A stretch of DNA of 64,000 nt from an uncultured bacterium (lineage in GTDB: Bacteria; Actinomycetota; Actinomycetes; S36-B12), in NCBI GenBank assembly GCA_963793105.1, contig CAWBZB010000006.1, forward strand, positions 146,727-210,726, in the 5' to 3' direction. The position numbers were made by a program, and so were the translations under genes. The notes beneath the pieces are model-generated. The model worked only from the letters and a program-made list of their open reading frames with translations. It had not been told where the DNA came from and searched no databases. Positions 6,077-55,384 of the stretch are shown here, in pieces (the stretch's first letter is position 1; the number at the start of each line of letters is the position of its first letter).

Positions 6077-7243
6077 GTGCCCGTTCCCGAGTCGGCGAGC
6101 ATCGTCATCATCGGCGGCGGCGTCATGGGCACCAGCATCGCCTTCCACCTGGCGGAGGCCGGGGTCCGCGACATCCTTCTCCTCGAGCAGGCGCAGCTGG
6201 GCAGCGGGTCGACCTGCAAGGCGGCCGGCGGCGTGCGCGCCCAGTTCTCGGACCCCGTCAACATCGCCCTCGGCGTGCGCGGGCTCGACGCATTCGAGTC
6301 CTTCGCCGAGCGTCCCGGCCAGGAGATCGACCTGCGCCAGCCCGGCTACCTCTTCCTGCTCCACACCCCCGAGGAGGTCGCGGCATACGAGGCGTCGGTC
6401 GCCCTGCAGAACAGCATGGGCGTGCCCAGTCGCATGCTGACCGCGGACGAGGCGGTGGCCCTGTCCCCGGCGGTCGATCCCGACGCAGTTCTTGCCGCCG
6501 CCTTCCACCAACGCGACGGCTACTGCTCCCCCGAGTCCGTCGTGCTCGGCTACGCCACCGGAGCACGCCGATACGGAGCCACCATCCGGACCGGGGTCAC
6601 GGTCACCGGGATCCGTACCAGCGGCCACGAGGTCACCGGGGTCGAGACCGATCATGGCCTCGTCGGGACGTCGTGCGTGGTGTGCGCGGCGGGCGCCTGG
6701 TCCCGGCCGGTCGGGGCGATGGCCGGCGTGGACCTGCCGGTCGACCCGCTGCGCCGGCAGATCCTCATCAGCGAGCCGCTGCCACCGCGACTGCTGCCGC
6801 TGCTGCCCGACACGATGCCCATGACGATCGACGCGGGCACGACCTTCTACTTCCATCGCGAGGGCCCGGGCCTGCTGATGGGCATGTCCTACCAGCGCGA
6901 GACGCCAGGCTTCCGCACCGAGTACAGCGAGGCCTGGCTGCCCGACCTGATGGCCGCGATCGAGCATCGAGCACCCGCGCTCCTGGACGTCGGAATCGCG
7001 CACCGGTGGGTGGGGATGTACGAGGTGACCCCGGACCACAACGCCCTGCTCGGCGAGTCCTCGACGCTGTCGCGCTTCCTCTACGCCACGGGCTTCTCCG
7101 GGCACGGCTTCCTGCAGGGGCCGGCCGTCGGCGAGGTCGTCCGTGACCTCTATCTGGGCGTCGAGCCCTTCCTCGACGTCGCGCCGTTCAGCGCCGACCG
7201 ATTCGCTTCGGGCGCCCTGCGCGGCGAGGTCAACATCGTCTAG
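6077..7243 (+). CDS. FAD-dependent oxidoreductase (DAO / sarcosine-pipecolate oxidase-like family)
   Basis: IVIIGGGVMGTSIAFHLAEAG dinucleotide-binding fold. GTG start 2 nt after the upstream stop; the longer ORF start at 5957 overlaps the previous gene. Confidence 0.8.
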   Translation: MPVPESASIVIIGGGVMGTSIAFHLAEAGVRDILLLEQAQLGSGSTCKAAGGVRAQFSDPVNIALGVRGLDAFESFAERPGQEIDLRQPGYLFLLHTPEEVAAYEASVALQNSMGVPSRMLTADEAVALSPAVDPDAVLAAAFHQRDGYCSPESVVLGYATGARRYGATIRTGVTVTGIRTSGHEVTGVETDHGLVGTSCVVCAAGAWSRPVGAMAGVDLPVDPLRRQILISEPLPPRLLPLLPDTMPMTIDAGTTFYFHREGPGLLMGMSYQRETPGFRTEYSEAWLPDLMAAIEHRAPALLDVGIAHRWVGMYEVTPDHNALLGESSTLSRFLYATGFSGHGFLQGPAVGEVVRDLYLGVEPFLDVAPFSADRFASGALRGEVNIV

Positions 7244-7311
7244 TTCGTTGAGTGGTCGGCCGTGCACCTGCGTCGCGGCGTGCGGACGTGCTGGAGCGCC
7301 CACTCGACGGG

Positions 7312-7845
7312 TCAGAGGAGGACGCCCTCGTGCTCGAGCAGGCTCACCTTGATGTCCAGTCCGTAGCCGTAGCCCCCCAGTCCGTTCGAGGCGACCACCC
7401 GGTGGCACGGGATGAACGGCGCGACGAGGTTGGACGAGCACACGGTGCCGGCCGCGCGGGCGGCCCGCGGACGCCCGGCCCGGCGGGCCAGGCCGGCGTA
7501 GGTGTCGATGCTTCCCGCGCGGATCTGCCGCATCGCCCTCCACGCCTGCTGCTGGAAGGGGCCGCCCGGCTGGCTGACGGACACCTCCTCGAGGGCGTCC
7601 AGGTCCCCATCGGCGTATCGCGCCAGCACGTCCTTGATGAACGGGACCGTGCTGCGCGGCCGGACGTCGTACCCGATCGGGATCCGCTCCACCGCGTCCT
7701 CGAGGTCCCGGTAGGTCGACGCCACGACGGCGCCGTACTCCGACGGCCCGAGATCACCGGCGGCGTGCGGGTCCACGACCACCACGATCGGTCCTGCGGG
7801 CGTGCGGTACGTGGCGGCCAGCAGTGTCCCCGCCGGATGCGACAT
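7312..7845 (-). CDS. ogt: methylated-DNA--protein-cysteine methyltransferase
   Basis: PCHRVV active-site motif near the C-terminus. ATG 7845 lies 2 nt downstream of the aroG stop. Confidence 0.85.
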   Translation of the reverse strand: MSHPAGTLLAATYRTPAGPIVVVVDPHAAGDLGPSEYGAVVASTYRDLEDAVERIPIGYDVRPRSTVPFIKDVLARYADGDLDALEEVSVSQPGGPFQQQAWRAMRQIRAGSIDTYAGLARRAGRPRAARAAGTVCSSNLVAPFIPCHRVVASNGLGGYGYGLDIKVSLLEHEGVLL

Positions 7846-7847
7846 GA

Positions 7848-9176
7848 CTACCGCATCATGAGCATGTCGGCGACGAGGAAGGCGAGCTCCAGGCTCTGCT
7901 CGCGGTTCAGCCGCGGATCGCAGGCGGTTTCGTATCGGTCCCCGAGGTTGCCCTCGAGAACGCCGCCGGTCCCGCCCACGCACTCCGTGACGTCATCGCC
8001 GGTGAGTTCGATGTGGATGCCGCCCGGGATGGTCCCGAGGTTGCGATGGACCTCGAAGAAGCCCTCGACCTCGGTGACCACGTCGTCGAACAGCCGCGTC
8101 TTGTGTCCGGACAGCGCCTCACGGGTGTTGCCGTGCATCGGATCGCACACCCACACGACGGGTACGCCGCTGGCGTCCACCTTCTGCACGATGCTCGGCA
8201 GTACGTCGCGCACCTTCGCCGAACCCATGCGGGTGATCAGGGTCAGGCGACCCGGGATGCGGTCCGGGTTCAGCAGCTCGCACATCTGGACGACCTCGTC
8301 CGGCTCCGCCGTCGGGCCGAGCTTCACGCCGATCGGGTTGTGGATCGTCGAGGCGAAGTGCACGTGCGCCCCGTCGAGCTGGCGCGTGCGCTCACCGATC
8401 CACAGGAAGTGCCCGGAGACGTCGTACGGCAGCCCCGTCCGGGAGTCGATGCGCGTCAGCGCCCGCTCATAGTCGATCGAGAGCGCCTCGTGGGCGGCGT
8501 AGAACTCCACCCGCTGCAGCTCTTCGGGGTCGGCACCGATGGCATGCATGAACGACAGCGCCCGATCGATGTCGGCCGCCATGGCCTCGTACCGCTGACC
8601 GGCAACAGAGTCCCGCACGAAGTCCTGGTTCCACGCGTGCACCTGACGCAGGTCGGCATAGCCGCCCTGCGTGAAGGCGCGAACGAGGTTGAGCGCCGCA
8701 CTCGATGCGTTGTAGGCACGCACGAGACGCTGCGGATCCGGGCGACGGCCCTGGGGCTCGAAGGCGAGTGCGTTGACCGCGTCCCCGAAGTACGACGGCA
8801 GCTCGACTCCCCCGCGGCTCTCCAGGAGCTGCGAGCGCGGCTTGAAGTACTGGCCCGCCATGCGGCCGACCTTGATCACGGGCAGCGAGGCGGCGTAGGT
8901 GAGGATCACCGACATCTGCAGCACGGTCTTCAGCCGAGCCCGGATGGAGTCGGCGTTGTTGCCCGAGAACGTCTCGGCGCAGTCGCCGCCCATCAGGACG
9001 AAGGCGCGTCCCTGGGCTGCCTCGGACAGGCGGGTCGCGAGCACGTCGCACTCGCCGGCGAAGACGAGCGGGGGAAGGCTGGACAGCTCGTCGAGAGCCG
9101 CCTCCAGCTCGGCCCGGTCCGGCCAGGGCGGCTGCTGGGCAGCCGGCAGGTCCGGCCAGGTGATGGCGTCACGCAT
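7848..9176 (-). CDS. aroG: class II 3-deoxy-7-phosphoheptulonate (DAHP) synthase
   Basis: 442 aa. The N-terminus WPDLPAAQQPPWPD...LPPLVFAGECD and the overall sequence are typical of actinobacterial/plant type II DAHP synthases. Confidence 0.9.
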   Translation of the reverse strand: MRDAITWPDLPAAQQPPWPDRAELEAALDELSSLPPLVFAGECDVLATRLSEAAQGRAFVLMGGDCAETFSGNNADSIRARLKTVLQMSVILTYAASLPVIKVGRMAGQYFKPRSQLLESRGGVELPSYFGDAVNALAFEPQGRRPDPQRLVRAYNASSAALNLVRAFTQGGYADLRQVHAWNQDFVRDSVAGQRYEAMAADIDRALSFMHAIGADPEELQRVEFYAAHEALSIDYERALTRIDSRTGLPYDVSGHFLWIGERTRQLDGAHVHFASTIHNPIGVKLGPTAEPDEVVQMCELLNPDRIPGRLTLITRMGSAKVRDVLPSIVQKVDASGVPVVWVCDPMHGNTREALSGHKTRLFDDVVTEVEGFFEVHRNLGTIPGGIHIELTGDDVTECVGGTGGVLEGNLGDRYETACDPRLNREQSLELAFLVADMLMMR

Positions 9177-42427: not shown

Positions 42428-43330
42428 CTACCGCTCCCCGAGCTGAGCGGAGATCTGGGCGAGCTGCGCGAGCCGCTTCTCCAATGGCGGGTGCGTCGCC
42501 ATGATCGACTCGAGGCTGAAGCCGCGCTGGCCGGAGACCGCCGGGGCGAACGCGAACGAGCTGACCGGCTCCATCTGGCGCAGGTCCCGGTTCGGGATCG
42601 ACGCGATCTCGCCCGAGATCTTCTGCAGAGCACTGGCGAGGGACGAGGGCTTGCCCGTGAGGAGTGCGGCGCCGCGGTCGGCCCCGAGCTCCCGGTACCG
42701 CGACAGCGCCCGCATGAGGATGTACGACAGGACGTAGACGACGACGCTGACAACGGTGACCACGAGGACCATCACGGCGACGTTGTTGTCGCGATTGCGC
42801 CCGATCGATCCCCACATCGCGCTGCGCGCCATGAAACCAGCCAGGATCGCCGTGAACGACGCGACCGCCATCACCGTCACGTCGCGGTGGGCGACGTGGG
42901 AGAGCTCGTGCGCCAGCACCCCCTCCAACTCCTCCTGGTCCAGCCGCTTCAGCAGTCCGGTCGTGACGACGACGACGGATCGGTTCGGCGAGCGTCCCGT
43001 CGCGAAGGCGTTGGGCACGTCGCTGTCAGCGATGCCCACTCGCGGCTTCTTCATGTCGGCCATCGCGCAGACCCGGTCCACGATGCCGTGCAGCTGTGGC
43101 GCCTGCTCGGGCGTCACGACGACCGCGCGCATTGCCGACATGGCAAGGCTGTCGGAGAACCACCACTGGCCGAAGATCAACGCCCCACTGATCACCAGGA
43201 CGAAGATCGCGTTGACCCCGAAGGAGATCAGCACCGCGGCCAGGACGACGTAGAGCAGGCCGATGCCGAACAGGGTCCCGGCCATCCGGGCCGAGAGGCC
43301 CCGGTCACTCCCATACCGGGTACGAGCCAT
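42428..43330 (-). CDS. htpX: zinc metalloprotease HtpX (peptidase M48)
   Basis: HELSHVAHRD zinc motif, four TM segments. Confidence 0.9.
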   Translation of the reverse strand: MARTRYGSDRGLSARMAGTLFGIGLLYVVLAAVLISFGVNAIFVLVISGALIFGQWWFSDSLAMSAMRAVVVTPEQAPQLHGIVDRVCAMADMKKPRVGIADSDVPNAFATGRSPNRSVVVVTTGLLKRLDQEELEGVLAHELSHVAHRDVTVMAVASFTAILAGFMARSAMWGSIGRNRDNNVAVMVLVVTVVSVVVYVLSYILMRALSRYRELGADRGAALLTGKPSSLASALQKISGEIASIPNRDLRQMEPVSSFAFAPAVSGQRGFSLESIMATHPPLEKRLAQLAQISAQLGER

Positions 43331-43337
43331 CTGCGAC

Positions 43338-44066
43338 CTAGCCCTCGAGCTCCGGCTTCGGGCCTCCCGGCCCGAGCTCCCGCTTCAGGGCCTCGAGCTG
43401 CGCGTTCACGTCGTTCTCGCTCGCCATGCGCTCGAGTTCGACGGTGATGTTGTCCTTGCCCATGCTGGTGACATCGGCCAGGGCTCCGGACGCCACGAGC
43501 TCGTCGATCGCACCCGCGCGCGCCTGCATCTGGGCCGTCTTGTCCTCGGCCCGCTGGACCGCGAGGCCCACGTCGCCGAGCTCGTCCGAGATGCCGGCGA
43601 AGGCCTCGTTGATCTTCGTCTGCGCCTCGGCAGCCGAGTACGTGGCCTTGATGGTCTCCTTCTTCGTACGGAAGGTCTCGACCTTGGCCTGGAGCTGCTG
43701 GGCGGCTGCCGTCAACTTCTCCTCCTGCTCCTGCAGAGTGGCCAGTTGCATCTGGAGGTCGGCGATCTGCTGATGCAGCCCGCTGCGCCGCGTCAGCGCC
43801 TCCCGGGCCAGGTCCTCACGCCCGCCCGCGAGGGCGGCCCGCGCCTGCTCCTCCAGCTTGGACTCCTGCTGCCCCAGCCCTTGGATCTGCAGTTCCAGTC
43901 GCTTGCGGCTCGTGGCCACGTCGGCGACGCCCCGTCGCACCTTCTGGAGCAGTTCGAGCTGCTTCTCGTACGAGTAGTCGAGCGTCTCGCGCGGGTCCTC
44001 CGCGCGGTCGAGGGCCTTGTTGGCCTTCGACTTGAAGATCAGGGTGAAGCGCTGCCACAGGCCCAT
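43338..44066 (-). CDS. pspA: PspA/IM30 family protein
   Basis: MGLWQRFTLIFKSKANKALDRAEDP N-terminus and continuous coiled coil. ATG 44066 with GAAGGGGA Shine-Dalgarno sequence. Confidence 0.85.
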   Translation of the reverse strand: MGLWQRFTLIFKSKANKALDRAEDPRETLDYSYEKQLELLQKVRRGVADVATSRKRLELQIQGLGQQESKLEEQARAALAGGREDLAREALTRRSGLHQQIADLQMQLATLQEQEEKLTAAAQQLQAKVETFRTKKETIKATYSAAEAQTKINEAFAGISDELGDVGLAVQRAEDKTAQMQARAGAIDELVASGALADVTSMGKDNITVELERMASENDVNAQLEALKRELGPGGPKPELEG

Positions 44067-44146
44067 CGGGGTCCCCTTCGTCGTCCGGCACGTCACTCCA
44101 GCCTAGGCGGGTGCGCATCCGGACGCACCGACTAGGCTCGTGAATC

Positions 44147-44743
44147 ATGTTCGGACGAAAGCAGCCCCCCGCGGAGGACGAGACTCCCGCGACCTCCACC
44201 GACGCGCACGACCCCAACGCGCCGAAGGGCCGGCCCACGCCCTCGCGCCGGGAGGCCGAGGCCGCGCGCAAGCAGCAACTGAAGATCCCCAAGGATCCGA
44301 AGGCGGCCAAGAAGGCGGTGCGCGAACGCGAACGCGAGGATCGCGCCCGCTCGCGCGCCGGGATGATGGCGGGAGACGAGCGCTATCTGCCCGCCCGAGA
44401 CAAGGGCCCCGGCCGTGCCTTCGCCCGAGACTTCGTCGACTCGAGGTTCACGGTCGCCGAGTTCTTCATCTTCGTGGCCATCGCGGTCCTGGTGCTCGGC
44501 TTCGTCCGCAACCCGGCGATCCAGTCCTTCGTGTCGATCGCGTTCTTCGCCTTCACGGCCGTGATCGCGGTCGACACCATCGTCCTGCTGGTGCTGCTGA
44601 ACCGACGCGCGAAGGTGGCGGTGCCGAACCCGGTCGACCGCAAGGGCCTCACCCTCTACGCAGTGCTCCGCACCCTGCAGCTGCGCCGTCTTCGGCTCCC
44701 CCCGCCCCGCGTCCGCCGCGGCGGCGCCCCGATCGTCAAGTAG
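44147..44743 (+). CDS. DUF3043 membrane protein (Rv2206-like)
   Basis: Lys/Arg/Glu-rich N-terminus (PKGRPTPSRREAEAARK), then two TM helices. Confidence 0.7.
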   Translation: MFGRKQPPAEDETPATSTDAHDPNAPKGRPTPSRREAEAARKQQLKIPKDPKAAKKAVREREREDRARSRAGMMAGDERYLPARDKGPGRAFARDFVDSRFTVAEFFIFVAIAVLVLGFVRNPAIQSFVSIAFFAFTAVIAVDTIVLLVLLNRRAKVAVPNPVDRKGLTLYAVLRTLQLRRLRLPPPRVRRGGAPIVK

Positions 44744-46054: not shown

Positions 46055-47434
46055 CTACTGCGCTGCGGCCCGCCGCACCGCGTCGATGCTCATCCGCACA
46101 TCGTCCTCATCGGTCCTCCAGTTGCTCACGGACACGCGCATGACGTCGCGGCCCTGCCATCGCGACCCCGACATCCAGGTCGTGCCGTCGGCCAGCAGCC
46201 GGCGGGTGACCTCGCGCGTCCGCTCGTCCGACTCGAACGCCACGGACACCTGGGAGTAGACCACCCGGTTCAGGATCTCGGCCCCGGGGATCTCGGCGAT
46301 CCCCGCGGCCAGCGACTGCGCGTGCGTGACGTACCGGTCGATGAGGTCAGCCACCCCCTGCCGCCCCATCGACTTGAGCGCCGCCCAGACGGGCACGCCA
46401 CGGGCGCGTCGCGAGAACTCGGGCACCGTCTCGTAGGGGTCGGCGTGGTCGTCGGCACGGAGCATGTAGGCCGCCTGCACGCCGAGGGCGCGGCGCAGGG
46501 CCAGCGGATCGCGGACGATGGCCACCCCGCAGTCGTACGGCGTGTTGAGGGACTTGTGCGCGTCCGTGGCCCAGGAGTCCGCACGATCGAGCCCCGCGAC
46601 GAGGTGGCGTTGACGGGGGGATGCGGCCGCCCAGAGCCCGAAGGCGCCGTCGACATGCACCCAGCCGCCCTTCTCGTGGACGAGGTCCGCGCAGACGCCG
46701 ATGTCGTCGAAGGCGCCTGAGTGGAGGTTGCCCGCCTGCAACGCCACGAGCAGCGGCCCGTCCACACCGTCGAGCACCTCGGCGAGTGCATCGACCCGGA
46801 TGCGGCCCTGGTCATCGACGTCGACGAGGGTCGGCCGACCGAGCCCGAGGTAGCGCAGCGCGAGGTCGATGGTGGCGTGCCGGTCCGCGCCCGCGAGCAC
46901 CGTGACGCGCGGGGCTCCCGTCAGCCCCTCGCCATCGAGGTCCCAGCCGGCCGTGCTCAGCACGCTCTGCCGGCCGGCCGCCAACCCGGTGAAGTTCGCC
47001 ATGGTGCCGCCGGTGACGAACGCGACCTGCGCGGCCTCCGGCAGTCCGAGCACGTCCAGCAGCCAGCCCGCAGCGGCCTGCTCCGCCCCGACGACGCCGG
47101 GCGTCGCCAAGCGCAGCGGGGCGTTCTGGTCCCACGCGCTCACCAGCCAGTCCGCGCCCAGGGCCGCCGGCAGGGTGCCGCCGACCACCCATCCGAAGAA
47201 CCGGCCCGAACCCATGGACATGAGGGCCGGCTCGACGACACGGGCCAGGAGGTCGACCACGTCCGCCGGGTCGGCTGCGCCATCGGGGAGGGGGCCGCCA
47301 AGGGCCGCCGCCACGGAATCCGCGTCCCCGTCCGGCGGGATGGGCCGGTCGGGCACGCCATCAAGCCACTCCCGAGCGTGCATGACCGCCCGCGCGAGGA
47401 CCGCGTCATAGGTGCCGGGGTCGCCGCGCATCAC
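46055..47434 (-). CDS. PLP-dependent (group II) amino-acid decarboxylase family protein
   Basis: WATDAHKSLNTPYDCG contains the PLP-lysine motif. 459 aa. Confidence 0.8.
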   Translation of the reverse strand: MMRGDPGTYDAVLARAVMHAREWLDGVPDRPIPPDGDADSVAAALGGPLPDGAADPADVVDLLARVVEPALMSMGSGRFFGWVVGGTLPAALGADWLVSAWDQNAPLRLATPGVVGAEQAAAGWLLDVLGLPEAAQVAFVTGGTMANFTGLAAGRQSVLSTAGWDLDGEGLTGAPRVTVLAGADRHATIDLALRYLGLGRPTLVDVDDQGRIRVDALAEVLDGVDGPLLVALQAGNLHSGAFDDIGVCADLVHEKGGWVHVDGAFGLWAAASPRQRHLVAGLDRADSWATDAHKSLNTPYDCGVAIVRDPLALRRALGVQAAYMLRADDHADPYETVPEFSRRARGVPVWAALKSMGRQGVADLIDRYVTHAQSLAAGIAEIPGAEILNRVVYSQVSVAFESDERTREVTRRLLADGTTWMSGSRWQGRDVMRVSVSNWRTDEDDVRMSIDAVRRAAAQ

Positions 47435-47479
47435 GCAAGTATGGCCCGCTGGTCGGTCATCCGGTCAGCCTTTGACACC

Positions 47480-47720
47480 GCCCCGGCAGGCGTGGTCGGA
47501 TGCGACCACACAACTGAATCCACTCGTTCGACGTCCAGGGGAAGTCCGGTGCGATCCCGGCGCTGTCCCGCAACCGTGTTCCCCCGCGTGGGGGTGAGTC
47601 GGAGCACCTGGCGAACGCGAGCGGCTCCATCCGTCGAGGTAGCGGGACGGGAGCTCGGGTCTCCACCCGACCGTCCCCGCGTGCGTGCAGCACCGGGGAT
47701 TCGTGGTCACTGGGGATGCG
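47480..47720 (+). promoter_or_regulatory. cobalamin (AdoCbl) riboswitch with expression platform
   Basis: Core AGGGGAAGUCCGGUGCGAUCCCGGCGCUGUCCCGCAACCGUG (47538-47578) and B12-box-like GAGUCGGAGCACCUGGCG (47596-47613). A downstream GC-rich hairpin GCGGGACGG...CCGUCCCCGC and a CCUCC anti-SD-like tract precede GAGGAA-ATG. Confidence 0.8.
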
Positions 47721-47757
47721 GCGCCTCCGATCCGGCACCGCTCAACCCGAGGAACAC

Positions 47758-48834
47758 ATGACCCCCCTCATCGGCCTTCGCCGTCTCCTGGTGGCTGCAG
47801 TCGCCGCCACCACTGTCCTCGCCACGATCGGCCTGGCCCCCACGGCCACGGCCGCCCCGAGCGCCACCACCGGCCTGTACGGCGCCGGCGACCCGACCTA
47901 CGACGGCGTCTACCGCCAGTCGCTGGCGATCGCCGGGCTCGTGGCGACCGGCAACCGACCGGCGGGCGCTGCCATCACCTGGCTGCTCGACCAGCAGTGC
48001 GCCAACGGTTCGTTCCAGGCCTACCGGGCCGACCTGTCCGTCCCCTGCGCGGCCAGCGACCCCGTCAACTTCACCGGGCCGGACACGAACTCGACCGCGA
48101 CTGCGCTCATCGCTCTCACCGCCCTGGACGCCGACGTCACGACGCGCAGGCCCGTCGCCAAGCGAATCGCCGCGGGCGCGAGGAGCGCTGCGGCGTGGCT
48201 GCTGCGCAGCCAGAACGCCGACGGCGGGTGGCCGTGGTCCCCCACGGGCGCGTCGGACGCCAACTCGACCGGACTCGTCCTGGCCGCGGTTGTCAGCCGC
48301 TCCGGGGACCGCACGACCCCCGCGTACGCCAAGGCGCGCGGGTTCCTCGGTCGCCTCGCCGCCTCGTGCGCCCGCGGCGCAGGCCTGCCCTACCAGGCCG
48401 GCGGGAAGATCGACGGGTCGGCGACCGCTCAGGGACTCGTCGGACTCGCCGGACCGGTCCCGGTCGACGGACCCCGACGCCTGGCCGCCAAGGCTCCATG
48501 CGCCGACGGCGCCCAGGCCAAGGCGTCGAGCTACCTGGCCTCGCAGCTCCGGGCGCAGGGCTTCCTGACCTCGGCATTCGGCACCGGCGCGGACTACACG
48601 AGCACCGGCTGGGCCGTCCTCGGCCTGGTGTCCGCCCGTCAGGGACGCACCGCGGTCACGAAGGCCACTGCGGCCCTCAAGGCTGCCGCACCCGCCGAGA
48701 CCCGAAACGATGACGGTCCCGTCCCCGGGGACCTCGGCCTGCTCCTGCTCGTCGCCGAGGCCACCGGCTCGAAGCCGACCGCCTTCGGCGGCGTCAACCT
48801 CGTGACCACGCTCGCCACCAGCATCCGCAGGTAG
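47758..48834 (+). CDS. secreted prenyltransferase/squalene-oxidase-repeat (alpha/alpha-barrel) protein
   Basis: Signal peptide MTPLIGLRRLLVAAVAATTVLATIGLAPTATA. QW-like repeats WLLDQQCANGSF and WLLRSQNADGGWPW. First gene after the B12 riboswitch. Confidence 0.75.
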   Translation: MTPLIGLRRLLVAAVAATTVLATIGLAPTATAAPSATTGLYGAGDPTYDGVYRQSLAIAGLVATGNRPAGAAITWLLDQQCANGSFQAYRADLSVPCAASDPVNFTGPDTNSTATALIALTALDADVTTRRPVAKRIAAGARSAAAWLLRSQNADGGWPWSPTGASDANSTGLVLAAVVSRSGDRTTPAYAKARGFLGRLAASCARGAGLPYQAGGKIDGSATAQGLVGLAGPVPVDGPRRLAAKAPCADGAQAKASSYLASQLRAQGFLTSAFGTGADYTSTGWAVLGLVSARQGRTAVTKATAALKAAAPAETRNDDGPVPGDLGLLLLVAEATGSKPTAFGGVNLVTTLATSIRR

Positions 48835-48838
48835 CGCC

Positions 48839-49573
48839 ATGGCTCACCGCCCGATCGCCATGCTCGTCGCCGCCGCGGCGGCCAGCGGGCTGGCGATCGG
48901 CGCGCTGACGTTCGCGGCGGCGGTGCCCGCCCACGCCTCGGCCTACCGGTACTGGACCTACTGGCAGGCCGAGGGCGACTCCTGGGCGTTCGCGACCCAG
49001 GGTCCGGCGACGTCGCTCCCGGTCGACGGAGCCGTCGAGGGCTGGCGGTTCGCGGTGACCACGCAGTCCGGCGCCGCAACCGACGCCCCGCGCGTCCTGC
49101 CCGACTTCGACGAGACCTGCGGGACCACACCTCCGGAGGCGGGGAGCAAGCGCATCGCCCTCGTCATCGACTTCGGGCCAGCAGCGATCGCCCCCGCGAA
49201 CCAGGTCCCACCCGCGACGAAGATCTCGTGCGTCATCGCACCGGAGAACGCGTCGAGCCTGGACGTGCTGCAGTCCACGACCACCATCCGGGCGGAGAGC
49301 GGGCTGATCTGCGCGCTGGATGCCTATCCGCAGGGGGAATGCGCCCCCGTACTGGGCGATGACGAGGTCGCCGCGCTCCAGGCGGCCGCCTCGGCCAACG
49401 ACGAGCCGGCCGAGGACGACGCCGTTGAGGCGGCGGGACCCGCACTCGCCCCGGAACCCACCGACGCCGGATCCCCGACCGCCACCATCGTCGTGGCCGC
49501 CCTGCTCCTCGGCGCCGCGGCCCTCAGCGTGGCACTGGGACGGCGACGGGGCCGACGGGACAGCCATGGGTGA
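48839..49573 (+). CDS. secreted, C-terminally anchored protein (SCO2322-like; possible DUF4430/transcobalamin-C-like domain)
   Basis: Signal peptide ...AVPAHASA. YWTYWQAEGDSWAFATQGPATSLPVDGAVEGWRF. Acidic linker, C-terminal TM helix plus RRRGRRD tail. Lies 4 nt after the previous gene. Confidence 0.6.
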   Translation: MAHRPIAMLVAAAAASGLAIGALTFAAAVPAHASAYRYWTYWQAEGDSWAFATQGPATSLPVDGAVEGWRFAVTTQSGAATDAPRVLPDFDETCGTTPPEAGSKRIALVIDFGPAAIAPANQVPPATKISCVIAPENASSLDVLQSTTTIRAESGLICALDAYPQGECAPVLGDDEVAALQAAASANDEPAEDDAVEAAGPALAPEPTDAGSPTATIVVAALLLGAAALSVALGRRRGRRDSHG

Positions 49574-50681
49574 CGCGCGCTGGCTCCACCCGGGCGCCTG
49601 GTGGCTGTGGGCGCTCGGGCTGGCCGCGGGCGCCAGCCGGACCACCAATCCGCTCGTCCTCCTGCTCCTGATCGCCGCCGCCGCGGTCGTGGTCGACGCT
49701 CGTCGCCCCGACGCCCCATGGGGGCGTTCGTTCGCCATGTTCGTCAAGCTCGGCGTTCTCGTCGTCATCATCAGGGTCCTGGTCCAGATCGTGCTCGGCA
49801 CGCCGCTCGGGCCGACCGTCCTGGTGAGCCTGCCGGGAGTGACGCTTCCGGACTGGCTGGCCGGGCTGCGCATCGGCGGCGACGTCACGGCCGAGTCCCT
49901 GCTCCCTGCCCTGTACGACGGACTCCGCCTGGCCACGATCCTCATCTGCGTCGGAGCGGCCAACTCGCTGGCGTCCCCCACGCGCCTGCTGAAGTCGGTG
50001 CCCGCGGTGCTGTACGAGCTGGGCGTGAGCGTGGTCGTCGCCCTCACCTTCACCCCGCAGCTCGTCGGCGACGTCGCGCGGCTGCGCTCTGCGCGCCGTC
50101 TGCGCGGCCGCCCGACGAGCGGACCGCGGGCGATCGCCGGTGCCGCCGTCCCCGTGCTCGAGGGCGCCCTGGAGCGCAGCGTCACCCTGGCCGCCGCGAT
50201 GGACTCCCGGGGGTACGGCCGTCGTGGCTCGACGACCCGAACCCAGGCGCGGACGAGCGCCGCCCTGCTGCTGGCCGGGCTCGTGGCCGCCGCGGTGGGC
50301 AGCTACGGACTCGTGGCAGCGGACGCGCCCGCGCTCCTGGGGTTGCCGATGCTCATCCTCGGGGTGGCGGCCGCGGTGTCCGGCACGGTGCTGGCCGGTC
50401 GGAACAGCGCCCGCACGCGATACCGGCCCGATCCATGGGCGCTCCCCGAGTGGGCGGTGGCCGGCGCCGGAGTGAGCGTCGCGCTGCTGCTCGCCGCCGC
50501 GACGTGGTCGGGTGTCACCGGGCTGCAGACTCCCGTGTCGCCGCCCGCGTGGCCGACGCTCCCGCTGGTCGGCGTCCTCGCCGCGCTGCTCGCCGTCACG
50601 CCGACGTTCACCGCTCCACCCCTCCCGGTAGGCGCCGCGCCGCTCCACCGGTCCCGCCGACTCGCGGAGGCCGCCGCATGA
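49566..50681 (+). CDS. ecfT: ECF transporter transmembrane (T) component (EcfT/CbiQ family)
   Basis: Polytopic 371-aa protein with the Arg-rich coupling region ARLRSARRLRG. Overlaps the upstream gene by 8 nt and the ATPase gene by ATGA. Confidence 0.75.
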   Translation: MGDARWLHPGAWWLWALGLAAGASRTTNPLVLLLLIAAAAVVVDARRPDAPWGRSFAMFVKLGVLVVIIRVLVQIVLGTPLGPTVLVSLPGVTLPDWLAGLRIGGDVTAESLLPALYDGLRLATILICVGAANSLASPTRLLKSVPAVLYELGVSVVVALTFTPQLVGDVARLRSARRLRGRPTSGPRAIAGAAVPVLEGALERSVTLAAAMDSRGYGRRGSTTRTQARTSAALLLAGLVAAAVGSYGLVAADAPALLGLPMLILGVAAAVSGTVLAGRNSARTRYRPDPWALPEWAVAGAGVSVALLLAAATWSGVTGLQTPVSPPAWPTLPLVGVLAALLAVTPTFTAPPLPVGAAPLHRSRRLAEAAA

Positions 50682-52297
50682 TCGTCTTCGACCACGTCAC
50701 CATCACCTACCCGGGTCATGCCGCCCCGGTCCTCGCCGACGTGTCGCTGCGGATCCCCGAGGGTGAGCTGGTCCTCGTCGTAGGTCGTACCGGCACCGGC
50801 AAGACCACTCTGCTGCGTGCCATCAACGGGCTGGTCCCGCACTTCACGGGAGGGACGCTGTCCGGGCGAGTGATCGTCGACGGTCGCGACACCGCCCATC
50901 ACCCGCCGCGCGAGTTGGCAGACGTCGTCGGGGTCGTCCCGCAGGATCCGATGAGCGGCTTCGTCACGGACACTGTCGAGGACGAGCTGGCGTACGGGAT
51001 GGAGTGCCTGGGCCTGGCACCCGACGTGATGCGCCGCCGAGTCGAGGAGACCCTCGACCTGCTGGGCCTGAACGAGCTGCGGTCGCGGGCGCTGTCCACG
51101 CTCTCCGGCGGCCAGCGCCAGCGGGTCGCGATCGGCGCCGTCCTCACGTCGCACCCGCGGGTCCTGGTACTCGACGAGCCGACATCCGCCCTCGATCCCG
51201 GGGCGGCCGAGGAGGTCCTGTCGGCGCTCCAGCGCCTCGTCCACGACCTCGGGGTCACCGTGGTCATGGCGGAGCATCGACTTGAGCGCGTGGTCCAGTA
51301 CGCCGACCAGGTGATCGTGGTGCCGGGGGCGGGGCAGCCGCTGGTGTCCGGCCTGCCGGTCGACATCATGCGCAGCGCGCCGATCGCGCCACCCGTGGTC
51401 GAGCTCGGCAGGCTCGCCGGCTGGCAGCCGCTGCCCCTGTCGGTACGAGACGCCCGACGCGCCGCCGGCCCCCTGCGGGACCTGCTCGTCGGTCAGGTCC
51501 CGCACCTGAGGGCCGTGCCGACCGACCGCCAGCCGCTCGTCGAGACCGCCGGCGTATCGGTCCGCTACGGCTCCCAGGTGGCGCTGAGGCGACTGGACCT
51601 GAAGGTCGGCGTCGGTGAGATCGTCGCGCTGATGGGCCGCAACGGCGCAGGCAAGTCCACGCTGCTCAACGCGATGGTCGGGATCGGCCCGGACGTGGAC
51701 GGCGCCATCCGCGTCGGCGGTCGGGACCCCGGAACGCTGAACGGTCCGGAGCTGCTCCGGCAGGTCGGACTGGTGCCCCAGGACCCCGGCGACCTGCTCG
51801 AGGCCACGTCCGTCGCCGAGGAGTGCCGCGCCGCCGACCGCGACGCCGCCTGCGACGCCGGGACGACACGGGCGCTGGTGGCCCTGATGGCGCCCGAGGT
51901 CGAGGACGGCACCCACCCGCGTGACCTGTCGGAGGGCCAGCGCCTGCTCCTGGCACTCTGCGTGGTGCTGGCCGCTCGCCCGCCCCTTCTCCTGCTGGAC
52001 GAGCCCACCCGTGGGCTGGACTACCCCACCAAGGCCCGACTGGCCAGGATCCTCGTCGACCTCGCGGGGGCAGGGCACGCGGTGGTGCTGGCCACGCACG
52101 ACGTCGAGCTGGTGGCTGACGTGGCCGACCGGGTCGTCATCCTCGCCGAGGGAGAGGTCGTCGCCGACGGGCCGACCCTGGACGTGGTCACCTCCTCTCC
52201 GATGTTCGCACCCCAGGTGGCGAAGATCCTCGCCCCCCAGACCTGGCTGACCGTGGACCAGGTGGCCGGGGCGCTGGCCGGCGAGGTAGCCGGATGA
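50678..52297 (+). CDS. ECF/ABC transporter ATPase with two fused ATP-binding cassettes
   Basis: Two Walker A sites (GRTGTGKTT, GRNGAGKST), two signatures (LSGGQRQR, LSEGQRL), two Walker B sites (VLVLDEP, LLLLDEP). Confidence 0.9.
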   Translation: MIVFDHVTITYPGHAAPVLADVSLRIPEGELVLVVGRTGTGKTTLLRAINGLVPHFTGGTLSGRVIVDGRDTAHHPPRELADVVGVVPQDPMSGFVTDTVEDELAYGMECLGLAPDVMRRRVEETLDLLGLNELRSRALSTLSGGQRQRVAIGAVLTSHPRVLVLDEPTSALDPGAAEEVLSALQRLVHDLGVTVVMAEHRLERVVQYADQVIVVPGAGQPLVSGLPVDIMRSAPIAPPVVELGRLAGWQPLPLSVRDARRAAGPLRDLLVGQVPHLRAVPTDRQPLVETAGVSVRYGSQVALRRLDLKVGVGEIVALMGRNGAGKSTLLNAMVGIGPDVDGAIRVGGRDPGTLNGPELLRQVGLVPQDPGDLLEATSVAEECRAADRDAACDAGTTRALVALMAPEVEDGTHPRDLSEGQRLLLALCVVLAARPPLLLLDEPTRGLDYPTKARLARILVDLAGAGHAVVLATHDVELVADVADRVVILAEGEVVADGPTLDVVTSSPMFAPQVAKILAPQTWLTVDQVAGALAGEVAG

Positions 52298-53196
52298 CGG
52301 CCCGGGCAGTGCGGCTCGGCCCGACCTCGAGACTCGCGATCGGGCTGGTGACCTTCGTGGGCGTCATCGCCTTCGCCTGGCCGCTGCTCGCCGATCCCGC
52401 CTCGTCAGCCGTCGCGCATGCCGGCGACGCCCCGATCCTGTTCGCGATCGTCACTCCGCTGCTCCTGCTGGTGGTGCTCGCGCAGGTCAGCGACGGCGGT
52501 ATGGACGCCAAGTCGATCGCGATGCTCGGCGTGCTCTCTGCGGTCATCTGCGCGCTGCGTCCGCTGGGCGGCGGCGCGGTCGGGGTCGAGCCCATCTGGG
52601 CGGTGCTCATCCTCGGCGGTCGGGCGCTGGGACCCGGCTTCGGCTTCTCGCTCGGGGCGATCTCGCTCTTCGCATCCGCACTCATCACCGGCGGAGTCGG
52701 CCCGTGGCTGCCCTTCCAGATGCTCGCCGCCGCCTGGGTCGGACTCGGCGCCGGCCTGCTTCCGCGCACCTCGGGGCGACGGGAGGTGGTGATGCTGGCC
52801 GGCTACGCGGCGGTCGCCTCGCTGGCCTACGGATTCCTGATGAACCTGTGGTTCTGGCCGTTCGCGGCGGGGCTGCCGGAGTCGCTCGCCTTCGAGGCAG
52901 GGGCGCCACTGGCCGACAACCTCGCGTCCTGGCTGCGGTTCTGCCTGGTGACGTCGCTCGGCTACGACGTCCCGCGGGCGGTCATCGCCGTGGTGCTCAT
53001 CCTCATCGCCGGACGGCCGGTGCTGCTTGCCCTGCGACGGATGTCACGTCGAGCGGCCTTCGAGGCCCCGATCACCTTCACGCCGCGGGGCGGACCGTCA
53101 TACTTGGCGCCATCCGGAACGAACGGCGACCCCGGTCCGGCCGGGCACGACGCACAGGAGAGCCGTGACCGACCCACTCCCACCCTTCCTGGGTGA
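52294..53196 (+). CDS. ECF transporter substrate-specific (S) component-like membrane protein
   Basis: ATGA-coupled. Six or more hydrophobic helices, Gly/Ala-rich, with a soluble C-terminal tail of about 60 aa. Confidence 0.6.
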   Translation: MTARAVRLGPTSRLAIGLVTFVGVIAFAWPLLADPASSAVAHAGDAPILFAIVTPLLLLVVLAQVSDGGMDAKSIAMLGVLSAVICALRPLGGGAVGVEPIWAVLILGGRALGPGFGFSLGAISLFASALITGGVGPWLPFQMLAAAWVGLGAGLLPRTSGRREVVMLAGYAAVASLAYGFLMNLWFWPFAAGLPESLAFEAGAPLADNLASWLRFCLVTSLGYDVPRAVIAVVLILIAGRPVLLALRRMSRRAAFEAPITFTPRGGPSYLAPSGTNGDPGPAGHDAQESRDRPTPTLPG

Positions 53197-53918
53197 TGTC
53201 ATCGGGCGGATCGTCGCTCCGCCCGAGCCCCAGGAGCCCGACTCATGTCCCGCCTGACGTCACCGGCGCGCTCGCCGACCTGCTGGGCTGGTGGTACGCG
53301 CTGGCCGCCCCCGCGCAGCCCCGCCCCGCCGCCATCGCGGTCGACGTGGACGCCCTGGACGTCGACTCGGCGCTGCGAGCCGGGATCGCTGCTGCGGACC
53401 ACGCCGTCGATGCCGGCCAGTCGATCCTGGTTCCGCGCGTCACCGCCCGCGACGACGTCCTCGCGCGCACCGTCATCTCCCTCCTGAGCCGCAAGGAGGC
53501 GTCCCGGATCCTGCCCCAGCCGACCGGCATGACCGACCGCGAGTGGATGACCGAGTGCGCCGCCGTGCGGGACCGGGCGGCGTCCGTCGCCGAGCATCGC
53601 GGGGCTCCGGTCGACCTGCTCGCCGCCCTCTCCGCATCCGGGATGGCAGCGGTCGTGGGCACGCTCCTGGCCGGGGCGGCACGCCGCACCCCCTGCCTGA
53701 TCGACGGAACCGACGAACTGGCCGCCGCCCTCGTGGCCGATCGCCTGTGCTTCCGCGCGAAGGGCTGGTGGCGGTCGGCCTCGGACTCCCCCGACCCCGG
53801 ACGCACCGCGGCCATCGACCGCATGGATCTGACCGCCGGCCTGCCGCTCCTGCTCACGGACGATCGCGGCCGCGGAGCCGCCGCCACCCTCGCCCTGCTC
53901 GACCTGCTCACCGAGTAG
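53193..53918 (+). CDS. short, divergent CobT-like (nicotinate-nucleotide--DMB phosphoribosyltransferase family) protein
   Basis: LLAGAARRTPCLIDGTDELAAALVA and the terminal DDRGRGAAATLALLDLL align by eye with the CobT C-terminal half. Only 241 aa. An alternative N-terminus (GTG 53165, VTDPLPPFLGDVIGRIVAPPEP) lies in another frame. Confidence 0.5.
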   Translation: MMSSGGSSLRPSPRSPTHVPPDVTGALADLLGWWYALAAPAQPRPAAIAVDVDALDVDSALRAGIAAADHAVDAGQSILVPRVTARDDVLARTVISLLSRKEASRILPQPTGMTDREWMTECAAVRDRAASVAEHRGAPVDLLAALSASGMAAVVGTLLAGAARRTPCLIDGTDELAAALVADRLCFRAKGWWRSASDSPDPGRTAAIDRMDLTAGLPLLLTDDRGRGAAATLALLDLLTE

Positions 53919-53922
53919 CGCG

Positions 53923-54193
53923 CTACTCGCCGAACTTGCGCATCTCCTCCTGGATCCGCTGCTCCGAAGGCATCTTCTCCCGTCGGCCCGAACGCCCCCC
54001 ACGCCACGAACGCCAGGGCGATGCCCATTCCGAAGATCGCCCAGAACGGCCAGAAGTAGCCGCCCTCGGTGAACGCCCAGACAGCGATGAGGACCAGCCA
54101 CACGATGACGAAGATGCCCAGCAGCCGCCAGAAGCCGGCCTGGTCCTTGAGCCGCTTCTCCGCGGCCCGATGCAGTGCCTCGTTGTCGCTCAT
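53923..54193 (-). CDS. 2TM-domain small membrane protein; frame broken near 53985-53990
   Basis: MSDNEALHRAAEKRLKDQAGFWRLLGIFVIVWLVLIAVWAF...FWPFWAIFGMGIALAFVAWGAFG, then the natural C-terminus RREKMPSEQRIQEEMRKFGE-stop (TAG 53923-53925) is one base out of frame. The 316-aa ORF continuation is an artefact. Confidence 0.55.
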
Positions 54194-54267
54194 ACGTCAA
54201 CGGTAGGCGTCGATCGCGGTCGCATGCATGTCCTGCGCAGATGCTTCCGGGGCGAACCGCGGGTCGC

Positions 54268-55384
54268 TCAGCGGGTGCTGGGCTCCACGAACGGCGGCTT
54301 GACCACGCGGAACCTCGAGGCCCGACCCCGCACGTCCACGACCACCTCGTCGCCGACGGCGACGGACGTGTCGAGAAGGCCGAGCCCGACGCCCTGCTTG
54401 AGCGTCGGGGAGAAGGTGCCGGAGGTCACCTCGCCGACGACCTCCCCGCCGAGCGGGTCGGCGTCGCCGGGTCGCCGCACCTGCATGTGCGGCCGAGGGA
54501 TGCCACGGTCCAGGGCCAGCAGCCCGCGCAGGCGCCGTGACGGTCCCGCCTCGCGCTGCGCGACAAGGGCGTCCCGGCCCACGAACTCGGGCTTGCCCCA
54601 GCCGACCGCCCAGCCCAGCATCGCCTCGACAGGGGTGATCGACGGGCTGATGTCCTGACCGTGCAGCGGATAGCCCATCTCGGTGCGGAGGGTGTCTCGA
54701 GCCCCGAGGCCGGCCGGCACGGCGCCGAGGGGCGCGCCCGCCTCGAGCAGTGCGTCCCACAGATCGCCCAGCACCGCCGCCGGCGCGACGAGCTCGTAGC
54801 CGTGCTCGCCGGTGTATCCCGTGCGGCAGACGATCAGCGGCTCGCCGGCGAACTGGGCTGACGCCATGGCCATGTAGTCATGGTCCGCGGGCAGCCCCAT
54901 CGCGCGGATCAGCTCCTCGCTGCGGGGTCCCTGGACGGCGATGATGCCGTGGTCCTCATGGTGGTCGTCGACCATCACCCCCTCCGGCGCTCGGTCGCGC
55001 AGATCGGCCACCACCGCTGCGGCATTCGCGGCGTTCGGGATCATGAAGACCTCGTCGTCGCTCCATCGGTAGACGATGAGGTCGTCGACGACGCCGCCGT
55101 CGTCGTTGCACAGCATCGAGTACTGCGCATGCCCGTCGGCGATCCGGTCCAGGTCGTTGGCGAGCACCCTGTTGAGGAAGCGCCACCGCTCCCGGACCGT
55201 GGATGCGTACCTTGCCCATGTGCGACACGTCGAACAGGCCGACCGCCGTGCGCACCGCCGTGTGCTCCGCGACGACGCCGGCGTACTCGATGGGCATGTC
55301 CCAGCCGCCGAAGTCAGCCGTCTTGGCACCCGCCGCGGCATGCCGCGAGTGGAGGGGGGTCTGCTTCAGAGGGGTCTCGTTCAC
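54268..55384 (-). CDS. gcvT: glycine cleavage system aminomethyltransferase (T protein); frame broken near 55180
   Basis: N-terminal 68 codons ([12 protein letters not shown]...[10 protein letters not shown]...[20 protein letters not shown]) are in one frame. [23 protein letters not shown]... continues in the next, and skipping base 55180 joins them. Confidence 0.85.

Follow-up and report, generated by a model that had tools for sequence, protein, structure and literature searches.

In the 64,000-nucleotide stretch of DNA analysed here (positions 146,727 to 210,726 of contig CAWBZB010000006.1, from an uncultured bacterium of the Actinomycetota; hereafter the window), a cobalamin riboswitch heads six closely packed genes encoding two exported proteins, g1 and g2, the parts of an energy-coupling factor (ECF) transporter and a truncated CobT-like protein, g6. 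We favour the reading that this operon specifies a group I ECF importer of corrinoids (cobalamin, other cobamides and/or cobinamide) that is repressed through the cobalamin riboswitch and whose exported helpers most likely capture the corrinoid, and we consider this probable as a whole. Its parts carry different weights: that the operon imports a corrinoid is very likely, and for direct corrinoid binding by g1 or g2 we put the chances at about even. We infer the substrate, the ligand binding of g1 and g2 and the hand-over to the S-component from the evidence presented below. An earlier note on this DNA had described a B12-riboswitch ECF operon in which two secreted proteins come before EcfT, a double ATPase and an S-component; the packing, overlaps and coordinates agree with the sequence, and the regulation and transporter parts are borne out by Rfam on the one hand and by Pfam and NCBIfam on the other.

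The operon is preceded by a cobalamin riboswitch

All the elements lie on the plus strand. A full-length match to the adenosylcobalamin (AdoCbl)-type cobalamin riboswitch model of Rfam (RF01482) covers positions 47512-47658, 100 nt upstream of g1, with a score of 50.8 bits for a gathering score of 50 (E 2.2e-6), and contains the conserved 36-nt aptamer core at 47542-47577. RF01482 is the sole Rfam family above its gathering score on the plus strand of the window. The aptamer is followed by a leader, read as the expression platform (47659-47757), that carries a GAGGAA Shine-Dalgarno sequence at 47749-47754, in front of the g1 ATG at 47758. The minimum free energy fold of 47500-47775 was no better than that of shuffled sequences (z -1.45) and is uninformative. 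No promoter-like or terminator-like site was found in 47300-54300, so none interrupts the unit, and since no terminator was detected we infer that the riboswitch acts on translation initiation.

The first gene, g1 (47758-48834, 358 aa), is separated by 4 nt from g2 (48839-49573, 244 aa), which overlaps by 8 nt the gene for the T-component EcfT (49566-50681, 371 aa, CbiQ family). ATGA overlaps then join EcfT to a fused double ATPase, EcfA-EcfA' (50678-52297, 539 aa), and the ATPase to a dedicated S-component (52294-53196), while g6 (53193-53918) overlaps the S-component stop through a GTGA. The peptides quoted earlier for g1 (WLLDQQCANGSF and WLLRSQNADGGWPW) and for g2 (YWTYWQAEGDSW...LPVDGAVEGWRF) were all found in the sequence, and the signal peptides ascribed to both proteins are visible as N-terminal hydrophobic segments ending in A-x-A.

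Gene order and riboswitch are conserved across Actinomycetota

For the comparison, one genome per species was scanned and 80 loci (L001-L080) were fetched. Relatives of g2 occur in at least 560 species-level genomes, and among the matches listed the records named by lineage are almost all Actinomycetota; in a representative library the family forms 1483 clusters at 50% identity, and S-component relatives number more than 7000. The order g1-g2-EcfT-ATPase-S-component is the rule in the 80 loci and is conserved across Actinomycetota. The arrangement is not due to chance, as dozens of genomes share both the riboswitch and the order of the genes.

Whether such clusters always carry a cobalamin riboswitch had been proposed as a check, and the answer is essentially yes. 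Of the 32 related loci scanned, 26 gave matches at gathering level to RF01482, RF01689 or RF00174 shortly before the first gene. For 68 loci the upstream DNA was long enough to look for the aptamer-core motif, which in 66 of them occurs no more than 600 nt ahead of the first gene. The remaining two are L029, with the motif in front of a broken g1, and L048, with a sub-threshold match (24.7 bits, E 7e-4). Apart from the L029 copy, the core motif had no off-target occurrence in about 1 Mb of locus DNA. A cobalamin riboswitch or riboswitch-like element thus stands directly upstream of all 68 eligible loci and is essentially universal. The best-scoring Rfam model differs between groups: it is AdoCbl (RF01482) in the closest relatives of the window, AdoCbl-II (RF01689) in several metagenome-assembled genomes, including all the loci devoid of ECF genes described below, and Cobalamin (RF00174) in the g1-less Terrabacter/Intrasporangium group. 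The use of three aptamer models at one locus suggests a turnover of riboswitch class or a differing ligand selectivity.

The two exported proteins are not equally conserved. A riboswitch-g2-EcfT-ATPase-S-component order without g1 was observed in 22 loci, including those of Terrabacter, Intrasporangium, Humibacillus, Actinoallomurus and Marmoricola. As these loci keep g2, it is g2 and not g1 that is the constant partner, g1 being optional and present in about two thirds of loci. The 22 loci without g1 show that g1 and g2 are not an obligate two-part module. Conversely, six loci (L040, L041, L044, L050, L058 and L079) carry riboswitch-g1-g2 without ECF genes within the fetched DNA, as in L040 where the stand-alone unit spans 6726-8945, and these ECF-less loci have cobU-cobT-cobS within a few kb. 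Since six loci retain the riboswitch and both genes with no ECF genes nearby, the exported g1-g2 pair can form a self-standing B12-regulated unit.

A link to cobamide salvage was seen downstream of the transporter. In 45 of the 58 loci with enough downstream DNA, fewer than 700 nt separate the S-component stop from the start of a gene for a fusion of a metallo-beta-lactamase (MBL)-fold protein with CobU. This gene is followed by cobT, cobS and a CobT-like paralogue, and in 38 of 50 loci cobS is no more than 4 kb away. In the window and in L001, L002, L021, L023, L030 and L046, only the CobT-like gene is retained after the S-component. The system is also present in Nanopelagicales, which do not synthesize B12 de novo and of which some strains convert cobinamide to cobalamin (PMC12817590). 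As for the fusion itself (for instance L005 12244-13647; about 45 loci), a Lactamase_B_2 domain is joined to CobU, a cobinamide kinase/guanylyltransferase. We know of no earlier description of a Lactamase_B_2-CobU fusion.

The transporter is a dedicated ECF system of the non-CbiM type

EcfT matched Pfam CbiQ (PF02361; E 2.1e-8, 34.5 bits for a cutoff of 25), and in phmmer searches it matched the EcfT chains of solved ECF complexes (5d3m_D, 4hzu_T and 4huq_T). The double ATPase contains two ABC_tran domains (E 2.5e-55); it matched the NCBIfam models ECF_ATPase_1 and ECF_ATPase_2 (TIGR04520 and TIGR04521) with E values of 1e-85 and 1e-82, short of the equivalog cutoffs of both models, as a fused protein would be, and the cbiO subfamily model TIGR01166 with 234 bits, above the cutoff of 211.8. 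The S-component matched Pfam ECF_trnsprt (PF12822; 34.3 bits for a cutoff of 30.7), as did 19 of its 27 orthologues. With a T-component, two ATPase domains and an S-component in the same operon, the system is a group I (dedicated) ECF transporter. The S-component falls in a subfamily without a solved relative: phmmer and a 27-sequence profile, both run against all PDB sequences at E<=10, returned no S-component, CbrT (6FNP) included. Source databases name its relatives "ECF transporter S component", and the JGI name is a generic KEGG wording that does not discriminate between substrates.

These matches raise the question of cobalt. The operon could import cobalt ions for de novo B12 synthesis in the manner of a riboswitch-controlled CbiMNQO, given that EcfT matches a family named "CbiQ cobalt transport protein", that the ATPase matches cbiO subfamily models, and that cobalt uptake is commonly regulated by B12 riboswitches. 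However, the S-component belongs to PF12822 and not to CbiM/NikM, and there is no CbiN; neither the S-component of the window nor any of its 27 orthologues matched CbiM at E<=1. The earlier note had held that an S-component grouping with the Ni/Co family CbiM/NikM would speak against corrinoid import, and what was found instead is a generic PF12822 member. In addition, the neighbouring genes are the salvage genes cobU, cobT and cobS rather than chelatase or corrin-ring genes, and the system is found in Nanopelagicales, which lack de novo synthesis. Since the riboswitch, the salvage-gene linkage and the presence in Nanopelagicales agree, import of a corrinoid is favoured, and cobalt import is very improbable.

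The last gene of the operon bears on a second alternative. The g6 product matched Pfam DBI_PRT (CobT) with an E value of 1.5e-26 over profile positions 133-312 of 329, that is, over the C-terminal two thirds, the N-terminal third being missing. In the window it is translationally coupled to the S-component, and in many relatives the paralogue closes the cobU-cobT-cobS cluster beside a full-length cobT (at about 15600-16260 in L005; 12420-13064 in L001). This truncated CobT-like paralogue might take part in lower-ligand handling or cobamide remodelling. The transporter could accordingly be imagined to act as CblT, an S-component of Listeria, does and to import a lower-ligand precursor (dimethylbenzimidazole, alpha-ribazole or a related base). 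The coupling of the CobT-like gene to the S-component here and in L001, L002, L021, L023, L030 and L046 is consistent with this, as are the full-length cobT and cobS genes close by in many loci and the placement of cblT under B12 riboswitches in Firmicutes. Yet two sizeable extracytoplasmic proteins, one of them a toroid with a large central cavity, suit a larger ligand, and it is cobU that most often lies directly downstream (45 of 58 loci), pointing to cobinamide salvage; moreover, no alpha-ribazole kinase was seen, and NCBIfam and Pfam gave no CblT-specific match. We regard lower-ligand import as improbable, though somewhat less so than cobalt import.

g1 is a predicted exported, non-catalytic alpha/alpha toroid

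The g1 protein matched Pfam SQHop_cyclase_C with 26.8 bits and the NCBIfam model for the SCO2321 family membrane protein (NF053823) with an E value of 9.8e-55 and 186 bits, for a cutoff of 300, over positions 3-352 of 405. Judged by this match, it appears to be a clear relative of the SCO2321 family and not a full-length equivalog. The C-terminal (anchor) part of the SCO2321 model is missing from the g1 clade, and a hydrophobic C-terminal anchor was found in none of 45 family members; g1 is read as a soluble protein. The AlphaFold2 (AF2) model, built with 45 homologues, is all-helical with a predicted local distance difference test (pLDDT) score of 87.8. When searched against the PDB with Foldseek, it matched alpha/alpha toroids with E values from 1e-6 to 1e-3 and a TM-score of about 0.5, among them drimenyl diphosphate synthase, squalene-hopene cyclase and ent-copalyl diphosphate synthase, as well as the thioester-containing (TED) domains of complement C3/C4 and prenyltransferase beta subunits. 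The alpha6/alpha6-type barrel that had been deduced from repeats is thereby recovered as an alpha/alpha toroid in the model (pLDDT 88) and in the structural search (E down to 1e-6).

Neither the DxDD motif of class II cyclases nor the CxEQ thioester motif was present in any of the 45 g1 family members. As the toroid fold is shared but both motifs are missing, g1 is best modelled as a secreted non-catalytic member of the toroid superfamily, and the absence of the cyclase and thioester motifs fits a binding role. Its signal peptide ends in ...APTATA|APS. An Arg-Arg pair occurs in the n-region of the signal peptide in 28 of 45 family members (GLRRLLV here, within 47758-47850), and the full S/T-R-R-x-F-L consensus in none; export of the folded toroid by the twin-arginine translocation (Tat) pathway is possible.

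A closer relationship of g1 to the cobalamin-binding alpha domain, as formerly suggested, was not supported. There was no match to the Cobalamin_bind hidden Markov model (HMM) PF01122, no transcobalamin, intrinsic factor or haptocorrin chain among the 50 best Foldseek matches or in a profile search of the PDB, and hhalign against transcobalamin gave a probability of 1.5% (E 0.035) over one toroid repeat.

g2 is a membrane-anchored protein of the SCO2322 family

The g2 protein matched the NCBIfam SCO2322 family (NF040672) with 155.6 bits, above the cutoff of 85, over profile positions 1-140 of 144, and its precomputed Pfam accession is PF28005.1. Its conserved beta-rich domain, at about residues 34-172, is predicted to contain seven strands and two short helices, with an aromatic-rich YRYWTYW strand; the AF2 model has a pLDDT of 86, with 133 of 244 residues at 90 or above. 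Invariant residues are R37, Y38, W39, W49, W69, F71, C94, C131, C158 and C168. Four invariant cysteines and an invariant aromatic cluster are what one would expect to see in an extracytoplasmic binding or docking domain. The signal peptide ends in AHA|SA, and the domain is followed by a linker rich in Ala, Pro, Glu and Asp (about residues 175-210, pLDDT 56-60), a hydrophobic segment at 210-236 and then RRRGRR, in agreement with the C-terminal membrane anchor noted before. Of 45 family members, 43 have such an anchor.

Further features of the g2 family were recorded. A conserved G-[ST]-P motif precedes the anchor helix and the poly-Arg tail (49430-49573, residues about 198-244), resembling a sorting signal without LPXTG or LAXTG; weak Gram_pos_anchor matches were obtained in 6 of 45 members, and some relatives bear the labels "LPXTG" or "MYXO-CTERM" in the source databases. 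In the representative library, the 730-aa protein P0359 contains both g1 and g2 domains, with the internal signal peptide of g2 retained after an Arg-rich, junk-like linker. We considered it as a natural g1-g2 fusion (Rosetta stone) and rejected this, the retained signal peptide making a frameshift or gene-calling artefact most likely. In another protein, P0363 (431 aa), an unrelated N-terminal region precedes the g2 domain, which occupies residues 285-426, and the anchor is missing.

This architecture allows another role for g2 within the same corrinoid importer, namely that of a structural or gating accessory (with or without g1) that would dock on the S-component and help to load or stabilise it, like CbiN or NikK/NikL. 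Its membrane anchor, its position directly before EcfT with an 8-nt overlap, its constancy where g1 is optional and its lack of similarity to known B12 binders are all consistent with such a role, and accessory components of this kind (CbiN, NikK and NikL) are established in group I ECF transporters. The six ECF-less riboswitch-g1-g2 loci, in contrast, better suit a self-standing capture function, and the long flexible linker suggests a tethered domain that reaches out. A purely structural or gating role thus seems unlikely, although it is the strongest of the alternatives considered here.

The transcobalamin-like beta domain is not detected in g2

The earlier note had described g2 as reminiscent of DUF4430, the transcobalamin-like C-terminal domain, and every search that bears on this was negative. 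Against the DUF4430 HMM (PF14478), 0 of 45 g2 family members matched at E<=10. As a positive control, human transcobalamin (TCN2) scored 24.9 bits with the same model; the sequence used was validated by a Cobalamin_bind score of 394 bits. With the g2 model, Foldseek returned nothing from the PDB at E<=0.001 and no transcobalamin, intrinsic factor or haptocorrin chain among 28 matches up to E 10, and the g2 family profile retrieved nothing relevant from PDB sequences. Finally, hhalign of g2 against TCN2 gave a probability of 0.1%. The identity of g2 with DUF4430 was rejected on these grounds.

By eye, the N-terminal YRYWTYW...DGAVEGWRF part of g2 looks like the C-terminal half of DUF4430, while the second half of g2 looks like the N-terminal half, and the predicted order of secondary structure (beta-beta-alpha-hairpin, then three strands) would suit a permuted DUF4430. 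Because the halves seemed to be swapped, a circular permutation was tested by placing residues 99-172 before residues 34-78. None of 32 permuted members matched PF14478 at E<=10, and hhalign of the permuted g2 against the TCN2 beta domain gave a probability of 0.7%; a circularly permuted DUF4430 was therefore rejected at the sequence level. The proposal of a split transcobalamin fold is thus upheld for the fold class of g1, a toroid, and not for g2, which lacks the similarity to DUF4430 whose absence the earlier note had itself named as counting against the proposal.

A proposed route for corrinoid uptake and its standing

We propose the following mechanism. At low intracellular (adenosyl)cobalamin, the leader RNA would let all the genes of the unit be expressed. 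On the outer side of the membrane, g2, held there by its C-terminal helix and a flexible linker, would act as the core accessory subunit and g1 as an optional soluble toroid partner; g2, with g1 where present, would most likely capture scarce corrinoid in the envelope and hand it to the S-component. The S-component would bind the corrinoid in the membrane, and EcfT with the fused double ATPase would drive its toppling and the release of the corrinoid into the cytoplasm. Imported incomplete corrinoids or cobinamide could then be completed by CobU-CobT-CobS, encoded just downstream in most relatives; in the window, the CobT-like paralogue is all that adjoins the transporter genes. The idea of cell-surface corrinoid capture feeding an ECF importer, put forward before, remains reasonable, and its functional side is strengthened by the conservation of the riboswitch and of the salvage genes.

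Several points weigh against this proposal. Judged by HMM, profile, Foldseek, hhalign and permutation comparisons, g2 appears to have no detectable similarity to any known B12-binding domain. In the structural comparisons g1 seems no closer to transcobalamin than to terpene cyclases or other toroids, with which it has the general fold class alone in common; g1 also cannot be essential, as it is missing from 22 loci. We considered the S-component as a CbrT and rejected this, no sequence similarity being detected by phmmer or profile. The substrate cannot be read from the regulation alone, because cobalt transporters and genes for lower-ligand salvage are under B12 riboswitches as well. Our literature search found no binding or transport experiment for any member, and the closest experimentally studied analogue, in Lactobacillus sakei, is linked to heme and not to B12.

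More tentatively, and with less confidence than the corrinoid importer as such, the SCO2322 domain of g2 may be an unrecognised corrinoid-binding module, either a new fold or a circularly permuted, highly diverged beta-grasp, that serves as a membrane-tethered ECF receptor, sometimes together with g1, and that could provide the main B12/cobinamide route in many Actinomycetota, including the dominant freshwater Nanopelagicales. The acquisition of B12 by thick-walled Gram-positive bacteria, especially Actinomycetota, is poorly known, reviews naming only BacA for mycobacteria, and a 2026 survey considers genome-based prediction of B12 uptake hard owing to weak transporter annotation. The operon is widespread, including in abundant freshwater plankton unable to make B12. 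Should g2 and g1 prove to bind corrinoids, they would be an example of extracytoplasmic receptors serving ECF transporters of a vitamin and would add a new domain to those that bind B12; cobamide salvagers in soils and lakes could then be recognised by a better genomic marker.

Regarding its genomic setting, genes for an HtpX-like protease, a PspA-like protein and a small membrane protein (42428-44743 in the window, upstream of the operon) are syntenic with L040 10270-12765, beside the g1-g2 unit there. Because of this synteny, the locus appears to lie in a conserved core-genome neighbourhood and not in a mobile element.

Comparison with known systems

Names for the families of g1 and g2 already exist in NCBIfam and Pfam, and predictions have already assigned the transporter to a class. 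A census of the Saier laboratory based on TCDB (PMC3924187) lists two membrane proteins of Streptomyces coelicolor under TC 3.A.1.32, the "Cobalamin Precursor (B12-P)" ABC family. This family is likewise an actinobacterial, B12-associated, dedicated ECF system, and from their NCBIfam names, SCO2321 and SCO2322, the accessory genes can be located in the genome of S. coelicolor; the classification, however, leaves out g1 and g2. We take this family to be CbrTUV (Rodionov et al. 2009), with its ECF genes SCO2323-2325 presumably beside SCO2321/SCO2322, its identity with the present operon being in part our assumption. We found no paper on the function of the SCO2321/SCO2322 families.

The only biochemically proven B12 ECF transporter is ECF-CbrT of Lactobacillus delbrueckii (Santos et al. 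2018; PMC5997447; PDB 6FNP). Both are ECF importers with a genomic context pointing to cobalamin or cobinamide, and CbrT takes up its substrate without a BtuF-type binding protein. CbrT belongs to group II and uses a general ECF module, whereas the present operon is dedicated, with its own EcfT and fused double ATPase, and the two S-components share no detectable sequence similarity. CbrT also has no characterised accessory protein, the adjacent cbrS being merely named (PMC5997447). This gene, mentioned once in that paper, stands beside cbrT in the nrdJ-cbrS-cbrT-pduO cluster of L. delbrueckii, and could be the Firmicute counterpart of an accessory protein.

In outline, transcobalamin, intrinsic factor and haptocorrin also combine a toroid with a small beta-containing domain, are extracellular and serve B12 uptake; here, two polypeptides are found, one of them membrane-anchored, and no Cobalamin_bind or DUF4430 match was obtained. 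CbiN, NikK and NikL, the established accessory components of group I Co/Ni ECF transporters, are likewise extra membrane-anchored or extracytoplasmic proteins within a dedicated ECF operon and illustrate that ECF systems can use accessories, but their sequences are unrelated, their substrates are metal ions, and the CbiM/NikM-type S-component is absent here. A functional parallel is offered by the surface B12-binding lipoproteins BtuG/BtuH of Bacteroides (Wexler et al. 2018), riboswitch-controlled proteins that capture B12 at the cell surface and feed a transporter for it; they differ in fold, carry lipid anchors and work with a TonB-dependent partner of the outer membrane in Gram-negative hosts.

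The nearest precedent is found in Firmicutes. Burroughs, Balaji, Iyer and Aravind (Burroughs et al. 2007; PMC1796856) defined a transcobalamin-like clade of SLBB beta-grasp domains. In bacteria these proteins are secreted or attached to the wall, frequently as fusions with an alpha/alpha toroid. Their genes share operons with those for CbiO-like ATPases and CbiQ-like membrane proteins in hosts lacking B12 synthesis, and B12 scavenging was predicted; the clade was reported from low-GC Gram-positives, planctomycetes and some archaea (PMC1796856). In the lsa1836-1840 ECF operon of L. sakei, the beta-like Lsa1839 and the alpha-like Lsa1840 are separate proteins and make up a split transcobalamin in the literal sense, and the operon was tied experimentally to heme uptake (Verplaetse et al.; bioRxiv 10.1101/864751). 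The earlier statement that no experimentally characterised example was known is therefore outdated in view of the 2007 prediction and the L. sakei experiments. Import of another tetrapyrrole such as heme, as proposed for Lsa1836-1840, must then be weighed for the present operon too: the similar layout of an operon linked by experiment to heme content (bioRxiv 10.1101/864751) speaks for it, but the universal cobalamin riboswitch control, the linkage to cobamide salvage and the lack of relationship between g2 and the beta-like protein type of L. sakei make it the least probable of the substrates considered, and hardly to be expected.

The present operon shares several traits with the Firmicute systems. 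In both, proteins that are exported or anchored to the cell are encoded at the head of an ECF operon or along with it, one of the partners has a toroid fold and scavenging of B12 or its precursors is predicted; in L. sakei the two proteins are also separate. The present system differs in that its second protein belongs to SCO2322/PF28005 with no detectable SLBB/DUF4430 similarity, in that it occurs in Actinomycetota, a phylum unlisted for the transcobalamin-like clade in PMC1796856, and in that the non-toroid protein is constant and the toroid optional, whereas the L. sakei system is linked to heme. The concept is thus already known, and the locus is an uncharacterised actinobacterial form of a known type of system.

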